Notes under the pieces: generated by a model
Seen by the model: only the letters and a program-made list of their open reading frames with translations
Database searches by the model: none
What the model was told of the DNA's origin: nothing
Shown here: one piece after another, positions 1,931-59,260 of the stretch
Position numbering within the stretch: position 1 is the stretch's first letter
Layout: each line of letters opens with the position of its first letter
Assembly: GCA_018267385.1 (NCBI GenBank)
Contig: JAFDYN010000002.1
Location: 130,548 to 194,547 of the forward strand
Length of the DNA stretch: 64,000 nt
Direction: 5' to 3'
Source: Bacteroidota bacterium
Lineage (GTDB): Bacteria > Bacteroidota > Bacteroidia > Chitinophagales > LD1
Translations under genes and position numbers: made by a program

Positions 1931-4840
1931 TTAATTCTGATTGTCCTCCTCCAGCTTCTCCCTGAGGTAATAGCCGGTGTGCGATTCCTTGACCTTGACC
2001 AGTCCCTCAGGTGTGCCCTGATAGACCAGGTGGCCGCCCTCATCGCCGCCATCGGGGCCGAGATCTACTACCCAGTCTGCACATTTGATCACATCCATAT
2101 TGTGCTCTATGACCACCACGCTGTGACCTACCTCTATGAGCTGCTGGAAAGATGACATGAGCTTTTTGATATCATGAAAGTGGAGACCTGTAGTCGGCTC
2201 GTCAAAGATGAAGAGCAGAGGCTGTGTGGTTGAGCCCTTGGTGAGGAATGATGCAAGCTTGACACGCTGTGCCTCACCGCCAGAGAGCGTGGAGGATGAC
2301 TGGCCGAGCTTGACATAGCCGAGGCCTACATTGCGCAGTGGCGCGATGCGCTGTACGATGTCATTCTGCTCTGCAAAGAACTCTATAGCTTCATCTATGC
2401 TCAGCTCGAGGACGTCATAGACGTTCTTGTCTTTGTACATTACCTCCAGCACATCTTCCTTGAACTTACGACCATTGCAGACCTCACACTTCAGGTGAAC
2501 GTCTGCGAGGAACTGCATCTCTACGATCACTTCACCTTCGCCTTTGCAGTTCTCACAGCGGCCACCTTCGATATTGAATGAGAAAGTGCCTGCAGTGTAG
2601 CCACGAATCTTCGACAACTGCTGGCGGGCAAAGAGCTCACGGATAGCATCGTATGCCTTGACGTATGTGACAGGATTAGAGCGGGAGCTGCGGCCGAGTG
2701 GATTCTGATCTATCATCTCCACGCCGGTGATCTTCTTCATATCACCACGCAGCTCACGGTAGGAGCCCGGCTTCTCCCCTCCCCCATCAAACTGGCGCAT
2801 GAGAGCGGGATAAAGTATCTTCTTGATCAGTGTCGTCTTGCCAGAGCCGCTCACGCCGGTCACCACCACGAGCGAGTTGAGCGGGAACTTGGCATCTACA
2901 TCTTTCAGGTTGTGCTGTGTGGCACCGATGATGGAGATAGAGTTTGCTGTGCGGCGGCGGATGCGGTCGTAGTCTATTTTGAGGTCGCCCTTCAGGTATT
3001 TGCCGGTCAGGCTGTGTTTGTCTTTGGTGATGTCTTTGGCTGGGCCATTATAGACCACCTCACCGCCGTGTATACCGGCCTCGGGACCCATGTCTACTAT
3101 GTGGTCGCAGGCCTTCATGATGTCCTCATCGTGCTCTACTACGATCACAGTATTGCCGAGGTCACGTAGATTCTTCAGCACATCTATGAGGCGGGCTGTA
3201 TCGCGCTGATGGAGGCCTATGCTCGGCTCATCGAGGATATACATAGAGGAGGTGAGGTTGCTACCTATGGAGCGGGTCAGGTTGATACGCTGCGTCTCGC
3301 CGCCGCTGAGCGTATTGGAGAGGCGATTCAGCGTAAGGTAGCCCAGGCCTACATCCATCATGGTCTGCAGGCGGCTATTGACCTCCAGTAAAATTCGGTC
3401 CGCTACCTTCTTATCCTCCGTACCGAGCTTGATCTCTTTGAACCATGCATAGAGATCCTTGATAGGAGTCATGAGCAGCTCGGAGATATCTTTGCCGGCT
3501 ATTTTCACATACTGTGCGTCTTTACGGATGCGGGAGCCGTGGCACTCGGGGCAGGTCGTTTTGCCTCGATAGCGGGAGAGCATGACGCGGTATTGTATCT
3601 TGTAGCTTTTCTCCTCCAGGTACTGGAAGAAATAGGTAAGCCCCTGGAAGTATTCATTGCCCGTCCAGAGAAGTTTCTTCTCCTCGGCAGTAAGATCTTT
3701 GTAAGCGCGATGGATAGGGAAGTCAAAGTAGATGCCCTTCTTCAATATCGGCTCCAGCCACTCGCTCATCTTCTCGCCACGCCATGGGGCTATGGCACCT
3801 TCATAGAGTGACAGACCCTTATCCGGTACGATGAGATCCTCGTCGATGCCGATCACTGAGCCAAATCCCTCACAATTTTTGCAGGCACCGTAAGGGTTAT
3901 TGAAGTTGAATAGATTCTGCGACGGCAGCTCGAAGCTCATACCATCTGCTTCAAATTTATTGTTGAAGACTAGCTCTGCCCCCAAACCCCCAAAGGGGGC
4001 TTTAACAGCAGTTTTCTTAGTCGCCGTTAAGCCCTCCCCTTCGGGGAGGGTTTGGGGGGGGCTGAGTTCAGTCTCTACATAGCATTCATTTCCACCTTCA
4101 TTGAAGGCTGTAAGCACAGAGTCTGCCACGCGGGATTTCAGCTCTTCTTCCTGCTTCACGATGATACGGTCTACGAGGACTTTGACTGTTTTATCTTTTG
4201 ATTTAGCGATCTCTGGCCTGTCTATCAGGTCTTCTATCTTGGCCACGTTGCCGTCCCACTTCATACGGGTGAAACCCTTTTGCAGCAAGAGCTTCAGCTC
4301 TTCATTAAGTTTTGTTTTGACGGGTGCATCATAGTAGATGAAAGCTTTGGTGCCCTCGGTGAGAGAGAAGATATAGTCCACCACATCCACCACTTCATGC
4401 TTGGTCACGAGTTGGCCGGAGACGGGAGAATAGGTTTTACCCAGGCGTGCATAGAGCAGACGGAGATAGTCATAGATCTCCGTGAGAGAACCTACGGTCG
4501 AGCGGGTCGTGCGCGTAGATACTTTCTGCTCTATGGCGATGGCGGGGCAGAGACCTTTGATGTAGTCTACGTCTGGTTTGTCCATGCGGCTGAGGAACTG
4601 GCGCGCATAAGAGGTCAGGCTCTCTACATAGCGGCGCTGGCCCTCGGCGTAGAGCGTGTCTATGGATAGGGATGACTTGCCCGAGCCGGAAACACCGGTG
4701 AAAACGATGAACTGATTTTTGGGCAGCTCGAGGTCCACATTTTTGAGGTTGTGCACGCGGGCACCTTTGATGAGGATCTTTGTATCGGCTTGTTTCTTTA
4801 TAGGGAGGTCAGTACCTTTTTTAGTGCTGGTGGTAGGCAT
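1931..4840 (-). CDS. uvrA: excinuclease ABC subunit A
   Basis: 969 aa with two ABC ATPase modules (GVSGSGKSS and GVSGSGKTT Walker A motifs, LSGGE signatures, VIVVEHD/VVVIEHN) and UvrA-typical zinc-module context. Confidence 0.97.
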   Translation of the reverse strand: MPTTSTKKGTDLPIKKQADTKILIKGARVHNLKNVDLELPKNQFIVFTGVSGSGKSSLSIDTLYAEGQRRYVESLTSYARQFLSRMDKPDVDYIKGLCPAIAIEQKVSTRTTRSTVGSLTEIYDYLRLLYARLGKTYSPVSGQLVTKHEVVDVVDYIFSLTEGTKAFIYYDAPVKTKLNEELKLLLQKGFTRMKWDGNVAKIEDLIDRPEIAKSKDKTVKVLVDRIIVKQEEELKSRVADSVLTAFNEGGNECYVETELSPPQTLPEGEGLTATKKTAVKAPFGGLGAELVFNNKFEADGMSFELPSQNLFNFNNPYGACKNCEGFGSVIGIDEDLIVPDKGLSLYEGAIAPWRGEKMSEWLEPILKKGIYFDFPIHRAYKDLTAEEKKLLWTGNEYFQGLTYFFQYLEEKSYKIQYRVMLSRYRGKTTCPECHGSRIRKDAQYVKIAGKDISELLMTPIKDLYAWFKEIKLGTEDKKVADRILLEVNSRLQTMMDVGLGYLTLNRLSNTLSGGETQRINLTRSIGSNLTSSMYILDEPSIGLHQRDTARLIDVLKNLRDLGNTVIVVEHDEDIMKACDHIVDMGPEAGIHGGEVVYNGPAKDITKDKHSLTGKYLKGDLKIDYDRIRRRTANSISIIGATQHNLKDVDAKFPLNSLVVVTGVSGSGKTTLIKKILYPALMRQFDGGGEKPGSYRELRGDMKKITGVEMIDQNPLGRSSRSNPVTYVKAYDAIRELFARQQLSKIRGYTAGTFSFNIEGGRCENCKGEGEVIVEMQFLADVHLKCEVCNGRKFKEDVLEVMYKDKNVYDVLELSIDEAIEFFAEQNDIVQRIAPLRNVGLGYVKLGQSSSTLSGGEAQRVKLASFLTKGSTTQPLLFIFDEPTTGLHFHDIKKLMSSFQQLIEVGHSVVVIEHNMDVIKCADWVVDLGPDGGDEGGHLVYQGTPEGLVKVKESHTGYYLREKLEEDNQN
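3978..4061. repeat. 84-bp palindromic (REP/MITE-like) element inserted in frame in uvrA
   Basis: Terminal inverted repeats GCCCCCAAACCC and GGGTTTGGGGGGGGC, an inner imperfect palindrome, and a CCCTCCCC-TTCG-GGGGAGGG hairpin. It encodes about 28 extra low-complexity residues (LSPPQTLPEGEGLTATKKTAVKAPFGGLGA) where UvrA sequences I recall have only a short linker. Confidence 0.6.
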
Positions 4841-4958: not shown

Positions 4959-4990
4959 GCCCCTGAATCCCCAAAGTGGACTTTAACAGC
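4959..4990. repeat. partial (left-arm) copy of the uvrA palindromic element, in the uvrA upstream intergenic region
   Basis: GCCCCTGAATCCCCAAAGTGGACTTTAACAGC compared with GCCCCCAAACCCCCAAAGGGGGCTTTAACAGC at 3978 matches at about 26 of 32 positions by eye. Confidence 0.45.
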
Positions 4991-5364
4991 CAGGGAACCG
5001 CAGAGACACAGAGCCGGAGCGGAAAATTGCTTTAAAAAGCTACATGACCTTTGTAAAGTTTAACCTGAAAAATAATTTTTACAATTATTTGGAAATACAG
5101 GAATACCTCCATAGCTTTGGATATATCCAAAACAAAAAGGCTATAGAGTAATCTTCTACTTTCAGTAATGCAGACCGTGAGGAATCAGTGAATAGAGTGT
5201 CTGCGCGCCTTGTTAATCAATTTTATAATCATATTTCGACAGTAGCAGTAGCTGCATTTTGCATTTGTCCTGATACACCGCTCCGGCTACTCCACTACTA
5301 AAAAACATCTGCCTATCGCTGCATAGACTCTACTTTTTAGATCACCACTTAAAACAGTACGTCT

Positions 5365-6219: not shown

Positions 6220-9200
6220 ATGAAGAAAGTACCTATACTTCTCTGCGCCTTTTTATTGTCCTTCATCTCTTTCGCTCAGGCTCCCCCTCAGGGTATCAGC
6301 TACCAGGCCGTAGTGCGGAACGCATCAGGAGCGATAGTAGCCAATACACATGTGTCGATCCGCTTTACGATCCATGACCAAACTGCTACCGGTACGGTAG
6401 TCTTTCAGGAGACGCATGCGCAGAATACCAATCAATTTGGCCTTTTCAATGCCGTGATCGGCACCGGCGGTGGCAATCTGGGCACCGTAGCCTGGGGTAG
6501 CGGTCCTAAGTTTCTGCAGGTAGAGGTAGATATAAACGGCGGCGGTAGCTATACAGATATGGGTACCAATCAGCTGATGAGCGTGCCCTATGCCCTGTAT
6601 GCAGGCAATGGCGGCGGTGGCGCTACGGGTGCTACAGGGCCGCGGGGAGCCACAGGTGCCACTGGCGGTGTAGGCAATACCGGGCCCACCGGGGCTACTG
6701 GTGCAGGCGGTGGTGCTACAGGACCCACCGGCAATGATGGTGCTACAGGAGCACAAGGGCCTACCGGTGCGACAGGAAGTAATGGTGCGACAGGTGCCCA
6801 AGGCAATACGGGACCTATGGGTCCGACTGGTAACGATGGACCAGCCGGACCGACCGGTGGAGACGGCATGACAGGTCCGCAAGGAAATACAGGAGCTGAT
6901 GGAGTGACCGGACCTACCGGTGCTGATGGTATCACAGGTCCACAAGGAAATACTGGGACTGATGGCTCGACAGGACCAACAGGACCGACAGGACCTACTG
7001 GATCTGGCGGAGGCGCAACTGGACCAACGGGACTGACTGGTCCTACAGGTCCATCTGGAGTAGGAGGCGGTGCAACAGGGCCCACTGGTCCATCTGGTAA
7101 TGATGGAGCAACGGGGCCGACCGGCCCATCCGGAATAGATGGTGTTACCGGCCCAACAGGTGCGGGAATCACAGGACCAACTGGTCCTGCTGGTATTGAC
7201 GGCGCCACTGGTCCTACTGGTTCCGGTGGTGGCGCCACAGGACCAACCGGCCCTACCGGACCTACAGGCGTGGGAGGTGGTGCCACTGGTCCGACAGGCC
7301 CTTCGGGCAATGATGGAGTGACGGGGCCGACAGGTGCAAATGGAACGAATGGTGCTACTGGTCCATCAGGTGCTGATGGAGTCACTGGCCCTACAGGAGC
7401 AAATGGCACTAACGGTAATACAGGACCTACCGGCCCTTCGGGTGCTGATGGAGCTGCGGGGAGCACTGGTGCACAGGGACCAACCGGACCTACTGGTACG
7501 GGCGGAGGCGCTACCGGACCGACAGGACCGACAGGACCATCTGGCAATGATGGCGCGGCAGGTGCTACCGGCGTGCAAGGTGTAACAGGACCGACTGGAG
7601 CTAACGGACTCAACGGAGCTACGGGGCCATCCGGTGCAGATGGCGCAGCAGGTCCTACCGGGCCCACAGGCGCTACAGGTGTGGGAGGAGGTGCCACAGG
7701 ACCGACTGGACCATCTGGCAATGATGGCGCAACTGGTGCTTCCGGCGCGCAAGGTATCACAGGACCAACTGGTGCTAATGGACTCAACGGAGCTACCGGT
7801 CCATCTGGTGCAGACGGCGCTACAGGACCTACCGGACCCACAGGCGCTACCGGCGTAGGTGGGGGTGCCACGGGGCCTACTGGTCCGTCAGGTGTAGATG
7901 GTGTCGCGGGCTCTACTGGTGCGCCGGGTATAACAGGACCTACAGGTGCTAATGGAATAAATGGAGCTACAGGGCCATCGGGTATAGATGGCGCTGCGGG
8001 ACCTACCGGACCCACAGGCGCTACCGGCGTAGGTGGGGGTGCCACGGGGCCGACAGGACCCACGGGTAGCAATGGCAACAATGGCGCCACAGGACCATCT
8101 GGTGCTGACGGTAGTGCCGGACCTACAGGCGCTCAGGGTGCTACGGGTGCACAAGGAACGACAGGAGCACAAGGGCCGGCAGGAAATGATGGCGCTACAG
8201 GACCACAAGGCAATACAGGCTCAGCAGGACCTACAGGCTCGACTGGTGCGCAAGGACCTACCGGAGCACAAGGACCGGCAGGAAGTGATGGTGCTACAGG
8301 ACTGCAAGGCACTACAGGCTCAGCAGGCCCCACGGGCCCGGCAGGTGCACAAGGACCTACAGGTAACGCAGGACCTACCGGAGCACAAGGACCAGCAGGA
8401 AATGATGGCGCTACAGGACCGCAAGGCACTACAGGCTTAACAGGGCCCACAGGTCCGGCAGGGGCACAAGGACCTACCGGTAATGATGGCCCTACCGGCC
8501 CTCAGGGAGCCACGGGGCCTAGCGGCTCACTAGATGCGTGGAGCCTGACCGGCAATTCCGGTACGACTCCGGGCACTAACTTCATCGGGACGATAGACTC
8601 TACTGATTTTGTAGTGAAGACTGATAACATCGAAGCGATGCGCGTACGTGCTAACAGGTATGTCGGTATTGGTACGACCACTCCTGCATTCCCGCTGGAG
8701 GTAGCTACTCCATCGCAATTTGCGGCTGCTATACATATCATCCCGGCTACTACTGGCAGGCGTGCGTCTATGCAGATAGGAGACTGGCAGGCGCTGGAAG
8801 ACGTATCGGGCAATGGTGTACGAAACTTTGCGATTTACCAAAACGCTACAGGTAAACAACGCTTTGATATAGATACTAATGGCTATATCGGTATCGGTAC
8901 GCTGAAGCCCGGCTCACCGGTGGTCATAGCCAGCCCATTGCTCAATTCAGGTGTTTTCAAAGTAGGAACACTTAGCACGGATCCTGATGAAACCTGGTGG
9001 ATGGGCTTCAATTCATCTGTGAATACACTACTGGCACCGAGCAGCGCAGATGGTACAGATCGTGCACGGATAGGCGTCAATCTGGACGGAACGGGCCGTG
9101 GCCGCTTGTTCTTTACCACAGGCAATGCAGGTACGCAGGTAGAGCGCATGCGCATAGATGAGACCGGTCTGGTGGGCATCGGCACCTCCACTCCTACTAC

Positions 9201-11820
9201 AAAACTCGATGTAGAATCAACTACCTCTCCTGCCTTCAAGCTCGTAGATGGTACGCAGGGCACAGGCAAGGTACTGACCAGTGATGCAAGTGGCAATGCG
9301 ACATGGCAGACACCTGCAGCATCGGGCGGTGGCAGCTCAGACAGCACGATCTATAAAGCTGATGGTACTCTGACCGGCAACCGCACCGTGGTCATGGCGG
9401 ATAAGAACCTGACCTTTACTGCTACTACGGGTAAGTTCAGCTATACACCTACTGTGATCGGTAGTGTAGCCATGGGTAGGTCTGTGACATCCGGTGGAGA
9501 CATGAGTTTCGCGACGGGAGTTTTTACTACGTCCTCAGGCAGCCAATCTTTTGCGGGGGGCTCACAGACGATCGCATCTGGCGGACAAAGCTTTGCCATG
9601 GGTAATACTGACACTGCCTCGGGCAGTCAGAGTGCTGTATTCGGGCAATACAGTAAGGCGCTGGGCAGCAATAGTTTCGTGGCAGGTCAAAACTCTGTGG
9701 CTATAGGCAGTAGCGCCGCTGCCTTTGGCTGGGCCAATAATGCGGGTAATAACCAGACCTTTGCGCAAGGGCAGAATACAACAGCTAGTGGCGTAGATGC
9801 GGCATCTTTTGGCTATCAGACCTTGGCATCCGGCTATGCTAGTATGGCTGTGAATGCCGGCAACTCTGCCACACAGAATTATACCTTCGCTGCAGGCTAT
9901 CAGAATATAGCCTCTCAAAATGCAGCAGCAGCTTTTGGTCAAAGCGATACAGCCTCAGGTATGCAGAGCGCTGTATTTGGCCAGTATAATAAAGCCTCAG
10001 GATTCCAGAGCTTTGTATCAGGATCTAGCTCTACGGCCATAGGTACCAATGCTGCCTCATTCGGCTTGAGCAATGCCTCGTCAAACAATCAGACCTTTAC
10101 ACAAGGGCAAGGTAACACTGCAAGTGCCAGCAATGCCGCCGCGTTTGGGGTGCAGACCACAGCCTCCGGACAGGCCAGTATGGCTATCAACTCAGGTACC
10201 GCCGCCACTACCAATTACGCATTTGCCGCAGGCAGCCAGACCATCGCATCGGGTATAGCCAGCGCGGCATTTGGCCAGAGTGATACCGCCATGGGTAACC
10301 AGAGTGCAGCATTCGGCTCCAACAGCAAAGTGCAGGGCAGCAATAGTTTTGTGGCGGGGCAGTCTGTGACTGCTATCGGCAGCAATGCGGCGGCGTTTGG
10401 ATCAGGCAGTAGTGCGGGCAATAGCTCTACTTTTGCCGCTGGCCAGAATGCATCTGCCAGTGGCTTTGGGGCCGTAGCGATGGGTACACAGACCAGTGCC
10501 AGCGGCTCCAGCAGTATGGCTGTAAACGCCAGTACCACAGCCAGCCAGAGCTATGCCTTTGCTGCAGGCAACCAAACAGTAGCATCCGGCTCGGCTAGTG
10601 CTGCCTTTGGCCAGAGCGACACTGCTCAGGGTTTCAATAGTGCATCATTTGGCAACTACAACAGGGCTGCAGGAAGCCAGAGCTTTGTGGCGGGCGGCTA
10701 CTCAGTGGTGACCGGCAGCAATGCTGCCAGCTTTGGAGGCAACAACAATGTGTCCGGCAATCTGGCCTTTGCTGCTGGTAGCAACCATACCGTGAGTAGT
10801 AGCGGAGCAGCAGCATTTGGCAGTTATAATGTCGTATCGGGCAATGCAAGTTTTGCAACAGGCCAGTACAATACGGCATCCGGCTTTCAGAGTTTTGCCA
10901 CCGGCACAAACAATAAAGCTACCAACGGGCAATCATTTGTGGCCAATGAAAACAATGTGGCAAAGGGTTCAGACGCTACTGCGTTTGGCATCAATGACTC
11001 CGCTAACGGGGACCGGAGCTTTGTGATCGGCACAAACAACAAAGGCACTAACGCACAGTCCTTCGCCGCAGGAGAGTTTAACGTTACCAAAGGCCAGTCT
11101 GCCGCCGCATTTGGTGCTGGCGATTCTGCTAATGGCAATTTCTCATTTGTGTCTGGGATAGGCAGCACTGCTGCATCATACGGTGAGACCGTGATAGGCG
11201 CTTACGCCACCCAGTACACTCCGGCCAGCACTACTGCATGGCAGTCCAGCGACAGGCTATTTACGATAGGCAATGGCCAATCTTATGCCCGGGCAGATGC
11301 CATGGTAGTGATGAAGAATGGCAATACAGGGATAGGTACCAACGCCCCTACTGCCTTACTCTCGGTAAATGGATCTGCCAATAATGCTACAGGGGCGTGG
11401 GGAGTTTTCTCCGACAGCAGGATCAAGACAGTGGAAGGCGAATTCACCGATGGCCTCAATGTGATCAACCGCCTGCGACCGGTCACATTCCGCTACAATG
11501 CTAATGCACCGTATCAGGCAGATGGCGCGCAGATAGGTGTGATAGCGCAGGAGCTGGAGCAGGTAGCTCCCTATATGGTATCTCAGCGGGACTACAAAAA
11601 CATCTCCGGCCTGCGCCAAGTCAATAATCAGGCTTACACCTTTATCCTCATCAATGCCGTGAAGGAACAACAGGCCGAGATAGAACGCCTCAATGCACGA
11701 AATAAAATGCTGGAAGACCAGATGAAAGCCAGTGACAATAAGCATGACCAAGTGATCCGGACCATGAAAGCGCAGATAGATGCCATCAACGAACGCCTGA
11801 ATATAACTACGGTGAAATAG
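6220..11820 (+). CDS. giant secreted surface protein: collagen-like triple-helix repeats + YadA-head-like adhesin repeats + C-terminal tail-fibre intramolecular chaperone (peptidase S74-like) domain
   Basis: 1866 aa with an N-terminal signal peptide ([21 protein letters not shown]) and about 630 aa of Gly-X-Y repeats. A long array of SFA.G..N.ASG-type repeats follows. The C terminus has SDSRIK...VTFRY...[15 protein letters not shown] and then a coiled coil. Confidence 0.9.
6610..8526 (+). repeat. collagen-like Gly-X-Y coding repeat region
   Basis: Continuous GXT/GXY triplets interrupted by GGG/VGGG kinks. It contains 174-bp (58-aa) units starting at 7678, 7852 and 8026. 7825..7877 and 7999..8051 are an identical 53-bp pair. 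Confidence 0.9.
9601..10944 (+). repeat. four tandem 336-bp (112-aa) super-repeats of adhesin-head-like motifs
   Basis: The G(N/Q)(T/S)DTA.G landmark recurs at 9601, 9937, 10273 and 10609, exactly 336 bp apart. The wider degenerate repeat zone is about 9450..11205. Confidence 0.8.
11406..11700 (+). other. peptidase S74-like intramolecular chaperone auto-processing domain (domain of the 6220..11820 CDS)
   Basis: The motif [12 protein letters not shown]...LRPVTFRYN...[16 protein letters not shown] matches the tail-fibre/endosialidase C-terminal chaperone family. Confidence 0.7.
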
Positions 11821-49905: not shown

Positions 49906-49919
49906 TTCTCCTACATTAT

Positions 49920-49968
49920 ATCAATAAAGCGAAAAGGCGGGTTGTCCCCGCCTTTTCGCTTTATTGAT
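49920..49968 (+). terminator. terminator formed by a 22-bp perfect-stem palindrome
   Basis: ATCAATAAAGCGAAAAGGCGGG-TTGTC-CCCGCCTTTTCGCTTTATTGAT. Confidence 0.8.
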
Positions 49969-50115
49969 ATCCGACAAATCAGCTTCCAAAAAAATATTTA
50001 TCGAAAACCTGCTATTGTACCAAATATTTTGAAGACTGGCGCGTCCTAATTGGAACAAACATTCTAAATGATCGGATGTTTGATTGTGTTCATTCAAACC
50101 ATAAAAAATTAAGAA

Positions 50116-59216: not shown

Positions 59217-59260
59217 TATAATAGTAAAGGCGATGAATGATCATCGCCTTTACTATTATA
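59217..59260. terminator. bidirectional terminator formed by a 20-bp perfect-stem palindrome
   Basis: TATAATAGTAAAGGCGATGA-ATGA-TCATCGCCTTTACTATTATA. Confidence 0.75.

Follow-up and report, generated by a model that had tools for sequence, protein, structure and literature searches.

A palindromic element read in frame within a Bacteroidota uvrA gene and its candidate long form, a DUF559 nuclease cassette

The uvrA gene of a Chitinophagales bacterium (Bacteroidota; contig JAFDYN010000002.1) carries, without loss of frame, an 85-nt palindromic element at positions 3978–4062 of the 64,000-nt stretch that we analysed, here called the window. On sequence comparison, the element belongs to a family of inverted repeats dispersed among Bacteroidota genomes, is an insertion relative to most of the nearest UvrA homologues, and has its site, frame and arm type in common with a second uvrA allele in which the arms enclose a complete DUF559 domain; judged from their open reading frames, members of the family are read through in the frames of essential genes. 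We think it probable that the element is a nuclease-less, non-autonomous miniature of a mobile repeat family of Bacteroidota whose long form carries DUF559, a Vsr-like PD-(D/E)XK nuclease, and is read through in the host frame. The initial annotation of the window had recognized an in-frame palindrome in uvrA that resembles the Rickettsia palindromic elements (RPEs); the link to a DUF559 nuclease cassette goes beyond what it foresaw.

Anatomy of the element and its place in UvrA

The host gene (1931–4840, minus strand) is an intact open reading frame of 969 amino acids with all UvrA domains present. Residues 20–967 match the solved structures 2r6f (E = 1e-258) and 3pih (E = 1e-256), and Pfam places UvrA_inter at residues 152–257 and UvrA_DNA-bind at 333–404. 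On the plus strand the element reads GCCCCCAAACCCCCAAAGGGGGCTTTAACAGC AGTTTTCTTAGTC GCCGTTAAGCCCTCCCCTTCGGGGAGGGTTTGGGGGGGGC, that is, two arms around a variable centre of 13 nt (AGTTTTCTTAGTC, 4010–4022), which was delimited by comparison with the related loci L002, L003, L004 and L049; its minus-strand reading is S260–A288 (...SPPQTLPEGEGLTATKKTAVKAPFGGLGA...). Arm A (3978–4009; arm profile E = 9e-11) consists of a G, an outer CCCCC block (3979–3983), AAA, CCCCC (3987–3991), AAA, GGGGG (3995–3999) and the inner motif CTTTAACAGC (4000–4009), which on the minus strand becomes GCTGTTAAAG-CCCCC-TTT-GGGGG-TTT-GGGGG-C and codes for AVKAPFGGLGA. Arm B (4023–4062) runs from the inner motif GCCGTTAAG (4023–4031) through CCCTCCCC (4032–4039), TTC, GGGGAGGG (4043–4050), TTT and GGGGGGGG (4054–4061) to a final C, and its minus strand codes for SPPQTLPEGEGL. 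The palindrome had been described as an 84-bp unit with terminal inverted repeats, an internal palindrome and a GC hairpin closed by a TTCG loop. We recovered the in-frame palindrome, the terminal repeat (3979–3989, CCCCCAAACCC, pairing at 11/11 positions with 4048–4058, GGGTTTGGGGG) and the internal structures, namely an inner hairpin CCCCC-AAA-GGGGG at 3987–3999 and a second, 8-bp hairpin CCCTCCCC-TTC-GGGGAGGG at 4032–4050; the unit is 85 nt, however, and the loop is TTC.

The arms were compared with the rule that defines BoxC/PIT/TM repeats: of three consecutive blocks, the second is complementary to the first and the third is a mirror image of the second, loops measure 1–6 nt and stems 6 nt or more. 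Arm B follows this three-block rule with 8-nt blocks and one mismatch (CCCTCCCC-ttc-GGGGAGGG-ttt-GGGGGGGG), and of the 8 positions of its outer block 7 agree with the mirrored stem; the corresponding arm of L002, L003, L004 and L049 has the exact mirror block CCCCTCCC. Arm A (CCCCC-ttt-GGGGG-ttt-GGGGG) has the same order with 5-nt blocks, under the 6-nt cut-off of PMC4666352. A detector for the three-block motif found exactly two matches in the whole window, both of them arms of the uvrA element (3979–3999 on the minus strand and 4032–4061 on the plus strand), against a background of two in 248 kb of control uvrA loci. In family members whose stem is more than a run of C or G, the outer block mirrors the purine stem and is neither a direct nor an inverted copy of it; the mirror is exact for at least five different stems, as in TCTCCCC/GGGGAGA with AGAGGGG, CCTCCCC/GGGGAGG with GGAGGGG, CCCTCTCC/GGAGAGGG with GGGAGAGG and TCCCCTC/GAGGGGA with AGGGGAG. 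Departures of the third block from the mirror are A-to-T changes, which are compatible with purine-motif triplexes. We had also considered the outer block as a direct repeat and dropped this, since mirror symmetry fits instead. Read as sequences, the arms obey the rule for a hairpin that could fold into an intrastrand purine-motif triplex.

Of the element's three sense frames, two are interrupted by stop codons, and the open one is that used by uvrA. The mRNA strand of the element has a predicted fold of −52.6 kcal/mol (z = −4.98), and none of 200 shuffled sequences folds as well. With a G+C content of 62%, the element exceeds both uvrA (52%) and the window (49%).

To place the insert, the UvrA loop between ...ECxVE and VFNNKFE was compared in the 60 nearest UvrA proteins. 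It spans 6–7 residues in most of them and 10–16 in about 14, and holds arm-type inserts of 23–52 residues in about 15, all of which contain recurrent peptides (QTLPEGEGL, QTLSKGEGL, SPSPLERAGER, KAPFGGLGA); the loops of P0030 (16 residues) and P0032 (13 residues) look like partial remnants of arm-type inserts. Orthologues thus vary in length at this point and carry no common segment of the window's length, in agreement with the original view of an insertion where other UvrAs have a short linker. In a tree built without the loop residues, filled and empty alleles are interleaved and at times nearest neighbours. The loop is filled in several clades in one frame, at positions within 1–2 codons of each other, with empty alleles between. 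A metagenome scan with UvrA P0013, for which the matches listed were mostly distant UvrAs (56–60% identity), provided baseline loop lengths. Both anchors, VDR and FNFNNP, were found in 42 UvrA loci among these matches, and 36 of them have a spacing of 62 residues; the spacing of 88 in the window thus exceeds this by about 26–27 residues and not, as first proposed, by exactly 28 codons. No near-identical filled/empty uvrA pair was found among the matches listed.

The AlphaFold2 model (mean predicted confidence, pLDDT, 69) shows residues 260–287 as coil with pLDDT below 50 between strands at 252–257 and 289–293. Because this coil lies between two strands and UvrA_inter ends at 257, the insert is modelled as a disordered excursion at a hairpin tip: according to the prediction, the β-hairpin that follows the UvrB-interaction domain carries at its tip a disordered loop of about 28 residues, which agrees with an earlier guess that it forms a surface loop. 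The intact reading frame implies that the insert is translated, and it is probably close to neutral for UvrA. A few residues downstream, at 296–303, UvrA reads FEADGMSF throughout the clade, at the place where Bacillus UvrA has the first C-x-x-C of the zinc module (HACPYCGF); the downstream GACKNCEG motif is retained in the clade.

The two sides of the insert differ in their conservation. Arm A, the right arm in the sense of uvrA, is identical at 32/32 nt to the uvrA arms of L001 and L002, although the genes as a whole are 86% and 78% identical to that of the window, and third codon positions 64% and 53%. This identity could reflect either nucleotide-level constraint or recent arrival or homogenization. 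The left side of the insert differs among the window, L001 and L002 by indels and nesting. In L001 (10798–10896) and L009 a second arm is nested inside the first uvrA element, and in L004 (10753–10896) two left arms stand in tandem in the insert; the uvrA loop seems to attract repeated events.

A dispersed family and its candidate DUF559 long form

The element has relatives inside and outside uvrA, as anticipated by the initial annotation, which would have been undermined by a sequence without other copies. Within the window a decayed single arm (CCCCTGAATCCCCAAAGTGGACTTTAACAGCC; 4960–4991, plus strand) was detected by blastn and profile matches about 120–150 nt upstream of the uvrA start, and in L002 a complete 76-bp element (9838–9913) lies upstream of uvrA at the matching position. 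Related uvrA alleles have a common layout of left arm, variable centre of 13–60 nt and right arm (GCTGTTAAAGCCCCC-TTT-GGGGGTTTGGGGGC). From the centre outwards, each arm is built of the inner motif (G)CTGTTAAAG, a pyrimidine block, a loop of 3–4 nt, a purine block complementary to the pyrimidine one, TTT and a mirrored version of that purine block; the inverted arms of the family measure 32–40 bp each, and full copies are typically 64–80 bp. On these grounds of sequence we regard the window element as a member of the family.

We searched 185,579 species genomes with a strict 22-base arm pattern and obtained 39 exact matches with their surrounding stretches, nearly all in Bacteroidota metagenome-assembled genomes (MAGs), including 11 in RYN_284, nine in bog_973 and three in Umea_bin-04588. 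Cultured hosts with matches are Larkinella rosea and Mucilaginibacter limnophilus; a match in Helicobacter pylori looks like chance, so that at least one of the 39 is likely to be of this kind. Copies of the family lie between genes or in frame within genes, and no direct repeat that would indicate a target-site duplication was seen around about ten complete copies. Under long open reading frames, in-frame copies were found in genes for MutS (L026), an alpha-2-macroglobulin-like protein (L030), FtsL-like proteins (L025 and L036) and a methyltransferase (L028), and the isoleucyl-tRNA synthetase gene, ileS, has in-frame copies at up to five separate sites (L035, L045 and L040). Within genes, forward reading of the arms gives SPQTPEGG(F/L) and reverse reading (A)VKAPxGGLGA. 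Two subfamilies are distributed differently: arms with a 3-nt loop that end in ...GGGGGC fall in long open reading frames in 15 cases and outside them in six, and those with a TTTA loop that end in ...GGGGGT do so in four and 20 cases, respectively; the TTTA loop introduces a stop codon in one frame. In Larkinella rosea (L044, 3171–3234) a full copy stands within a further inverted repeat (gccgcctttc ... gaaaggcgg), which may mark either insertion into the middle of a terminator-like palindrome or longer ends in that subfamily.

The closest tie to a nuclease comes from UvrA P0087 (locus L049, of a Chitinophagales-like lineage), a protein of 1081 residues with a Pfam DUF559 match of E = 5.5e-37, for which the nearest solved structure is 3hrl (E = 1.5e-17). 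Its insert occupies the same uvrA loop in the same frame as that of the window and consists of a left arm, a full DUF559 domain and a right arm. The left arm begins AGCCCCTCCCAAACCCTCCCC..., matching the left arm of the window element at 20 of the first 21 nt, and its inner motif GCTGTTAAAG is identical; the right arm is GGCTGTTAAAG-TCCCCTCT-gca-GGAGGGGA-ttt-AGGGGAGG. The centre of the window element thus corresponds in position to the DUF559 reading frame of the long relatives, and is itself a 13-nt segment that has no reading frame of its own and encodes no endonuclease.

Long relatives contain a full DUF559 domain with the motif D...E-x-D-G-x-x-H. Arm-flanked DUF559 was found in ileS (L035, L045 and L040), fused to the C terminus of a PaiB-like protein (L012), as an independent gene that starts from its own ATG beside a tandem array of arms (L007) and, through a protein search, in recG (L211), where the arm sequences differ. 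In L049, L035, L045, L012, L007 and L211 the left-hand motif is on the minus strand and the right-hand motif on the plus strand, at distances of 4–93 nt from DUF559; L040 has a right-hand motif only, 41 nt from DUF559. The arms of the window element have the same convergent arrangement around their 13-nt centre. Protein matches further place DUF559 within MetH and IspG, with Pro/Gly-rich flanks. The ileS gene of L035 (3051–7049, plus strand) is a single gene with several separate arm insertions and the full DUF559 cassette, and related MAGs (L045 and L040) have it without some of these. The tandem array of L007, from a Bacteroidales MAG (1212–1467), comprises about eight 39-nt units, each with a CCCCTC/GAGGGG three-block motif, and adjoins the free-standing DUF559 gene.

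Origin of the element and competing explanations

We infer that the short form derives from the DUF559 cassette or is moved by it in trans, and that movement would proceed by a nuclease cut near the arms and repair copying, not by DDE transposition. In this scheme the Vsr-like nuclease would cut the structured arms, nearby DNA or an empty allele, and repair would copy the element into the cut site in a homing-like manner. A copy landing in a gene would be neither an intron nor an intein and would be read in the host frame, with the C- and G-runs of the arms translated as Pro/Gly-rich flexible linkers; since the arms are read in this way, an insert would survive only in surface loops, and with an open frame. 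The short form would be a derivative of the cassette that has lost the nuclease, or alternatively its landing pad. A cycle of gain, nuclease loss and loss of the remnant would fit the mixture of uvrA alleles observed, some of them long, others short, relic or empty.

Several observations weigh against this explanation. The window holds no DUF559 gene in its 64 kb and, beyond the one intact copy, only one relic of the family. Triplex arms were absent at the DUF559 homologues of all 79 viral contigs inspected, so the DUF559–arm link would be specific to some lineages; we accordingly dropped a universal link. The filled/empty pairs available (P0016/P0031, 92% nucleotide identity; P0015/P0029, 88%; L035/L045, 85%) are too diverged for junctions or duplications to be defined, and in the uvrA pairs the element replaces an 18-nt loop and is not a clean addition; no target-site duplication was seen in these uvrA pairs, which are just 88–92% identical. 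That one type of nuclease would recognize many different target genes is not what classical site-specific homing leads one to expect, and this variety of host genes argues for some transposon-like freedom of target. Finally, the short form could be the older one, invaded later by a nuclease gene.

The alternative that comes closest, though we consider it improbable, is that of an ordinary miniature inverted-repeat transposable element (MITE) moved in trans by a classical transposase, with DUF559 as an unrelated passenger or a later invader of the palindrome centre. It would account for the small size, the terminal inverted arms (the 11/11 repeat and arms of 32–40 bp), the dispersed copies and the many copies without any reading frame, as well as for the viral DUF559 homologues that lack arms and for solo arms and arm pairs being far more numerous than DUF559-bearing copies. 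It is at odds with the lack of target-site duplications at about ten complete copies. Moreover, long forms with matching ends encode only DUF559 and not a known transposase, and no transposase gene was seen beside copies in the loci examined, in which no systematic search was made. The arms also bracket every Bacteroidota DUF559 copy examined, in convergent orientation, which would be an odd coincidence for a passenger.

Less probable still is that there is no transposable unit, and that triplex or hairpin repeats spread locally by replication stalling, template switching and gene conversion, with the uvrA loop as a tolerated hotspot. The TM/BoxC loci of E. coli are rearrangement hotspots near which no mobility genes were noted (PMC4666352), changes in the element region come about through indels, nesting and duplication of arms (L001 and L004), and the loop is replaced in filled alleles, not cleanly added to. 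Yet near-identical arms with one 10-nt inner motif turn up both in unrelated genes and across different orders, which requires transfer of sequence and not local generation, and mirror symmetry is not produced by any simple replication error.

We regard it as very unlikely that the element is a feature kept by the host, either as an adaptive flexible UvrA linker or as an mRNA structure that tunes uvrA expression. The strong predicted mRNA structure, the nucleotide conservation of the arm across lineages and the position next to the UvrB-interaction domain would suit such a role, but close relatives with empty alleles lack the element, its sequence recurs in unrelated proteins and in intergenic positions, disorder is predicted for the peptide, and neither a terminator-like nor a promoter-like site was called at the element. 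A spliced element (a mini-intein or intron removed before the mature protein) can practically be set aside: a repair gene is a typical intein host and an endonuclease in the long relatives is familiar from many inteins and introns, but 28 residues are far below intein size, Pfam finds only DUF559 and MTES_1575 and no Hint domain in the long inserts, no Rfam intron family matches the short element (E up to 10; only sub-threshold noise such as mir-4477, 24 bits against a threshold of 74) or the L049 and L035 loci (gathering threshold), and every uvrA variant keeps a stop-free frame, which a spliced RNA would not need.

Elsewhere in the window, perfect inverted repeats of 24 and 20 nt with loops of 4–5 nt, AT-rich with GC cores, occur at 49918–49970 and 59217–59260; they are probably terminators with no relation to the element family. 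A gene at 6220–11820 (plus strand), adjoining a sigma factor gene, encodes a protein of 1866 residues that has a signal peptide and a collagen-like region in which G-x-T/G-P-T triplets extend over hundreds of residues; after this region come serine/alanine-rich repeats and a C-terminal part that resembles phage tail-fibre chaperone domains; its orthologue in L001 has 1895 amino acids and no Pfam match.

Relation to known repeats and implications

RPEs, reportedly described by Ogata et al., are AT-rich elements of about 100–150 bp. Both they and the window element are short palindromes that form in-frame, translated inserts in housekeeping genes, at surface positions and with presence/absence differences among relatives. 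The window family differs in its host phylum, its GC-rich composition and shorter length (about 75–105 bp), its triplex-type mirror rule and its long form with a nuclease. Homology is unlikely because composition and host differ. The resemblance to RPEs proposed at the outset applies to behaviour, as an analogy; in anatomy, BoxC/PIT/TM triplex repeats are the nearest of the described elements.

These repeats have been known since the 1990s, and to our knowledge their origin and function are not known. Bachellier et al. and Hoyne et al., both cited in PMC4666352, described them, and in E. coli the TM_ECO/BoxC motifs formed triplexes in vitro and marked unstable loci (Holder et al. 2015, NAR, PMC4666352). 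Like the window family, they comprise three G/C-rich blocks (pyrimidine, loop, purine, loop, mirror purine) and are found alone or in inverted pairs. The E. coli TM pair 1+2 (164547–164631) is 85 bp long, as is the window element, and inverted pairs in E. coli join TTA-loop and CCG-loop motifs just as the uvrA inserts of L046 and L047 join TTT-loop and CCG-loop arms, so that the second-loop types TTT/TTA and CCG are common to the E. coli motifs and these related inserts. The nested arm of L001 and L009 (GGAGAGGGTAAGGGTGAGG) agrees with the E. coli core at 18/19 positions. There are also differences: the third blocks face inward in E. coli pairs and outward in the window family, and the E. coli copies are reported to be always intergenic and never near mobility functions (Holder et al., PMC4666352), whereas the window family lies in frame in essential genes and brackets a DUF559 nuclease. 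A BoxC-like motif (CCCCTCTCC-ttt-GGAGAGGGG-ctg-GGGGTGAGG) was also seen just 3′ of uvrA in a distant metagenomic Bacteroidota contig (L071, 3086–3118).

In E. coli K-12 (NC_000913.3), the DUF559 gene ycjD is followed, 168 nt further downstream, by TMECO no. 9 (1351204–1351239). The region (L050, 6030–6840; 1351029–1351839 of the genome) contains a degenerate arm at the ycjD stop codon, then a duplicated fragment of the ycjD 3′ end and then TMECO no. 9. Of 5426 complete E. coli genomes, 3378 (62%) have ycjD; a clean cassette-level empty site was not found in E. coli without ycjD, which have a different gene block upstream of fabI with a breakpoint about 50 nt beyond the TM motif. The proximity of TMECO no. 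9 to ycjD and the degenerate arm at its stop codon hint, from outside Bacteroidota, at a connection between BoxC and DUF559. We put forward, tentatively and with more doubt than confidence, a wider proposal: that BoxC/PIT/TM repeats are the ends of an unrecognized mobile element driven by a DUF559 nuclease, which makes no target duplication, can do without splicing since its arms are translated into Pro/Gly linkers, colonizes surface loops of essential genes and decays to nuclease-less palindromes like that of the window.

Among mobile elements with nucleases, the closest parallels to the DUF559 cassette are unspliced homing elements, such as the in-frame homing insert in the methylase of phage ShiLan (PMC11855218). 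In both, an endonuclease insert is read through with the host gene without an intron or intein, and one site of a conserved gene is re-occupied, with empty alleles in relatives. The clade of the cassette nuclease, Vsr/DUF559, has a proven homing enzyme among its members; I-Bth0305I is a homing endonuclease of the Vsr fold, as cited in PMC3424549. The two systems differ in that the HNH nuclease of ShiLan is out of frame with its host gene and DUF559 is in frame, and in that the window family has structured inverted arms, many host genes and nuclease-less miniatures, of which the window copy is one. With MITEs and REP (repetitive extragenic palindromic)/REPIN elements the family has in common small size, inverted-repeat architecture, many dispersed copies and non-autonomous forms. 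It lacks the GTAG or CGTC tetranucleotide that is given as the REP/REPIN head in PMC3733652, its arms beginning instead with (A/G)CCCCCAAA, and it differs from MITEs and REPINs by the lack of target-site duplication and by a same-ended partner that encodes a PD-(D/E)XK nuclease. No DDE or RAYT partner was seen; the open reading frames of the window were not scanned for Y1 transposases.

On sequence grounds, the element is best filed as one that follows the BoxC-type triplex rule and behaves like RPEs, to which we add the proposal of a DUF559 cassette as its parent. Our literature search, outside whose coverage most subscription journals lie, returned no paper on in-gene BoxC-type copies, in-frame DUF559 cassettes or a DUF559–BoxC link, and nothing on palindromic elements in Bacteroidetes genes or Vsr-like selfish insertions. 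The finding extends palindromes translated inside essential proteins from Rickettsia to free-living Bacteroidota, in uvrA, mutS, recG and ileS. If the cassette is the parent, orphan BoxC/triplex repeats would gain a candidate mobilizing enzyme, and a biological role could be proposed for the large DUF559 family. The finding also suggests a third route, besides introns and inteins, by which a nuclease gene may reside within another gene and leave it functional, that is, by being read through between ends that code for flexible linkers. Such inserts can inflate or split protein families and create frameshift-prone and assembly-prone sites in marker genes, and they mark permissive loops that may be useful in protein engineering.

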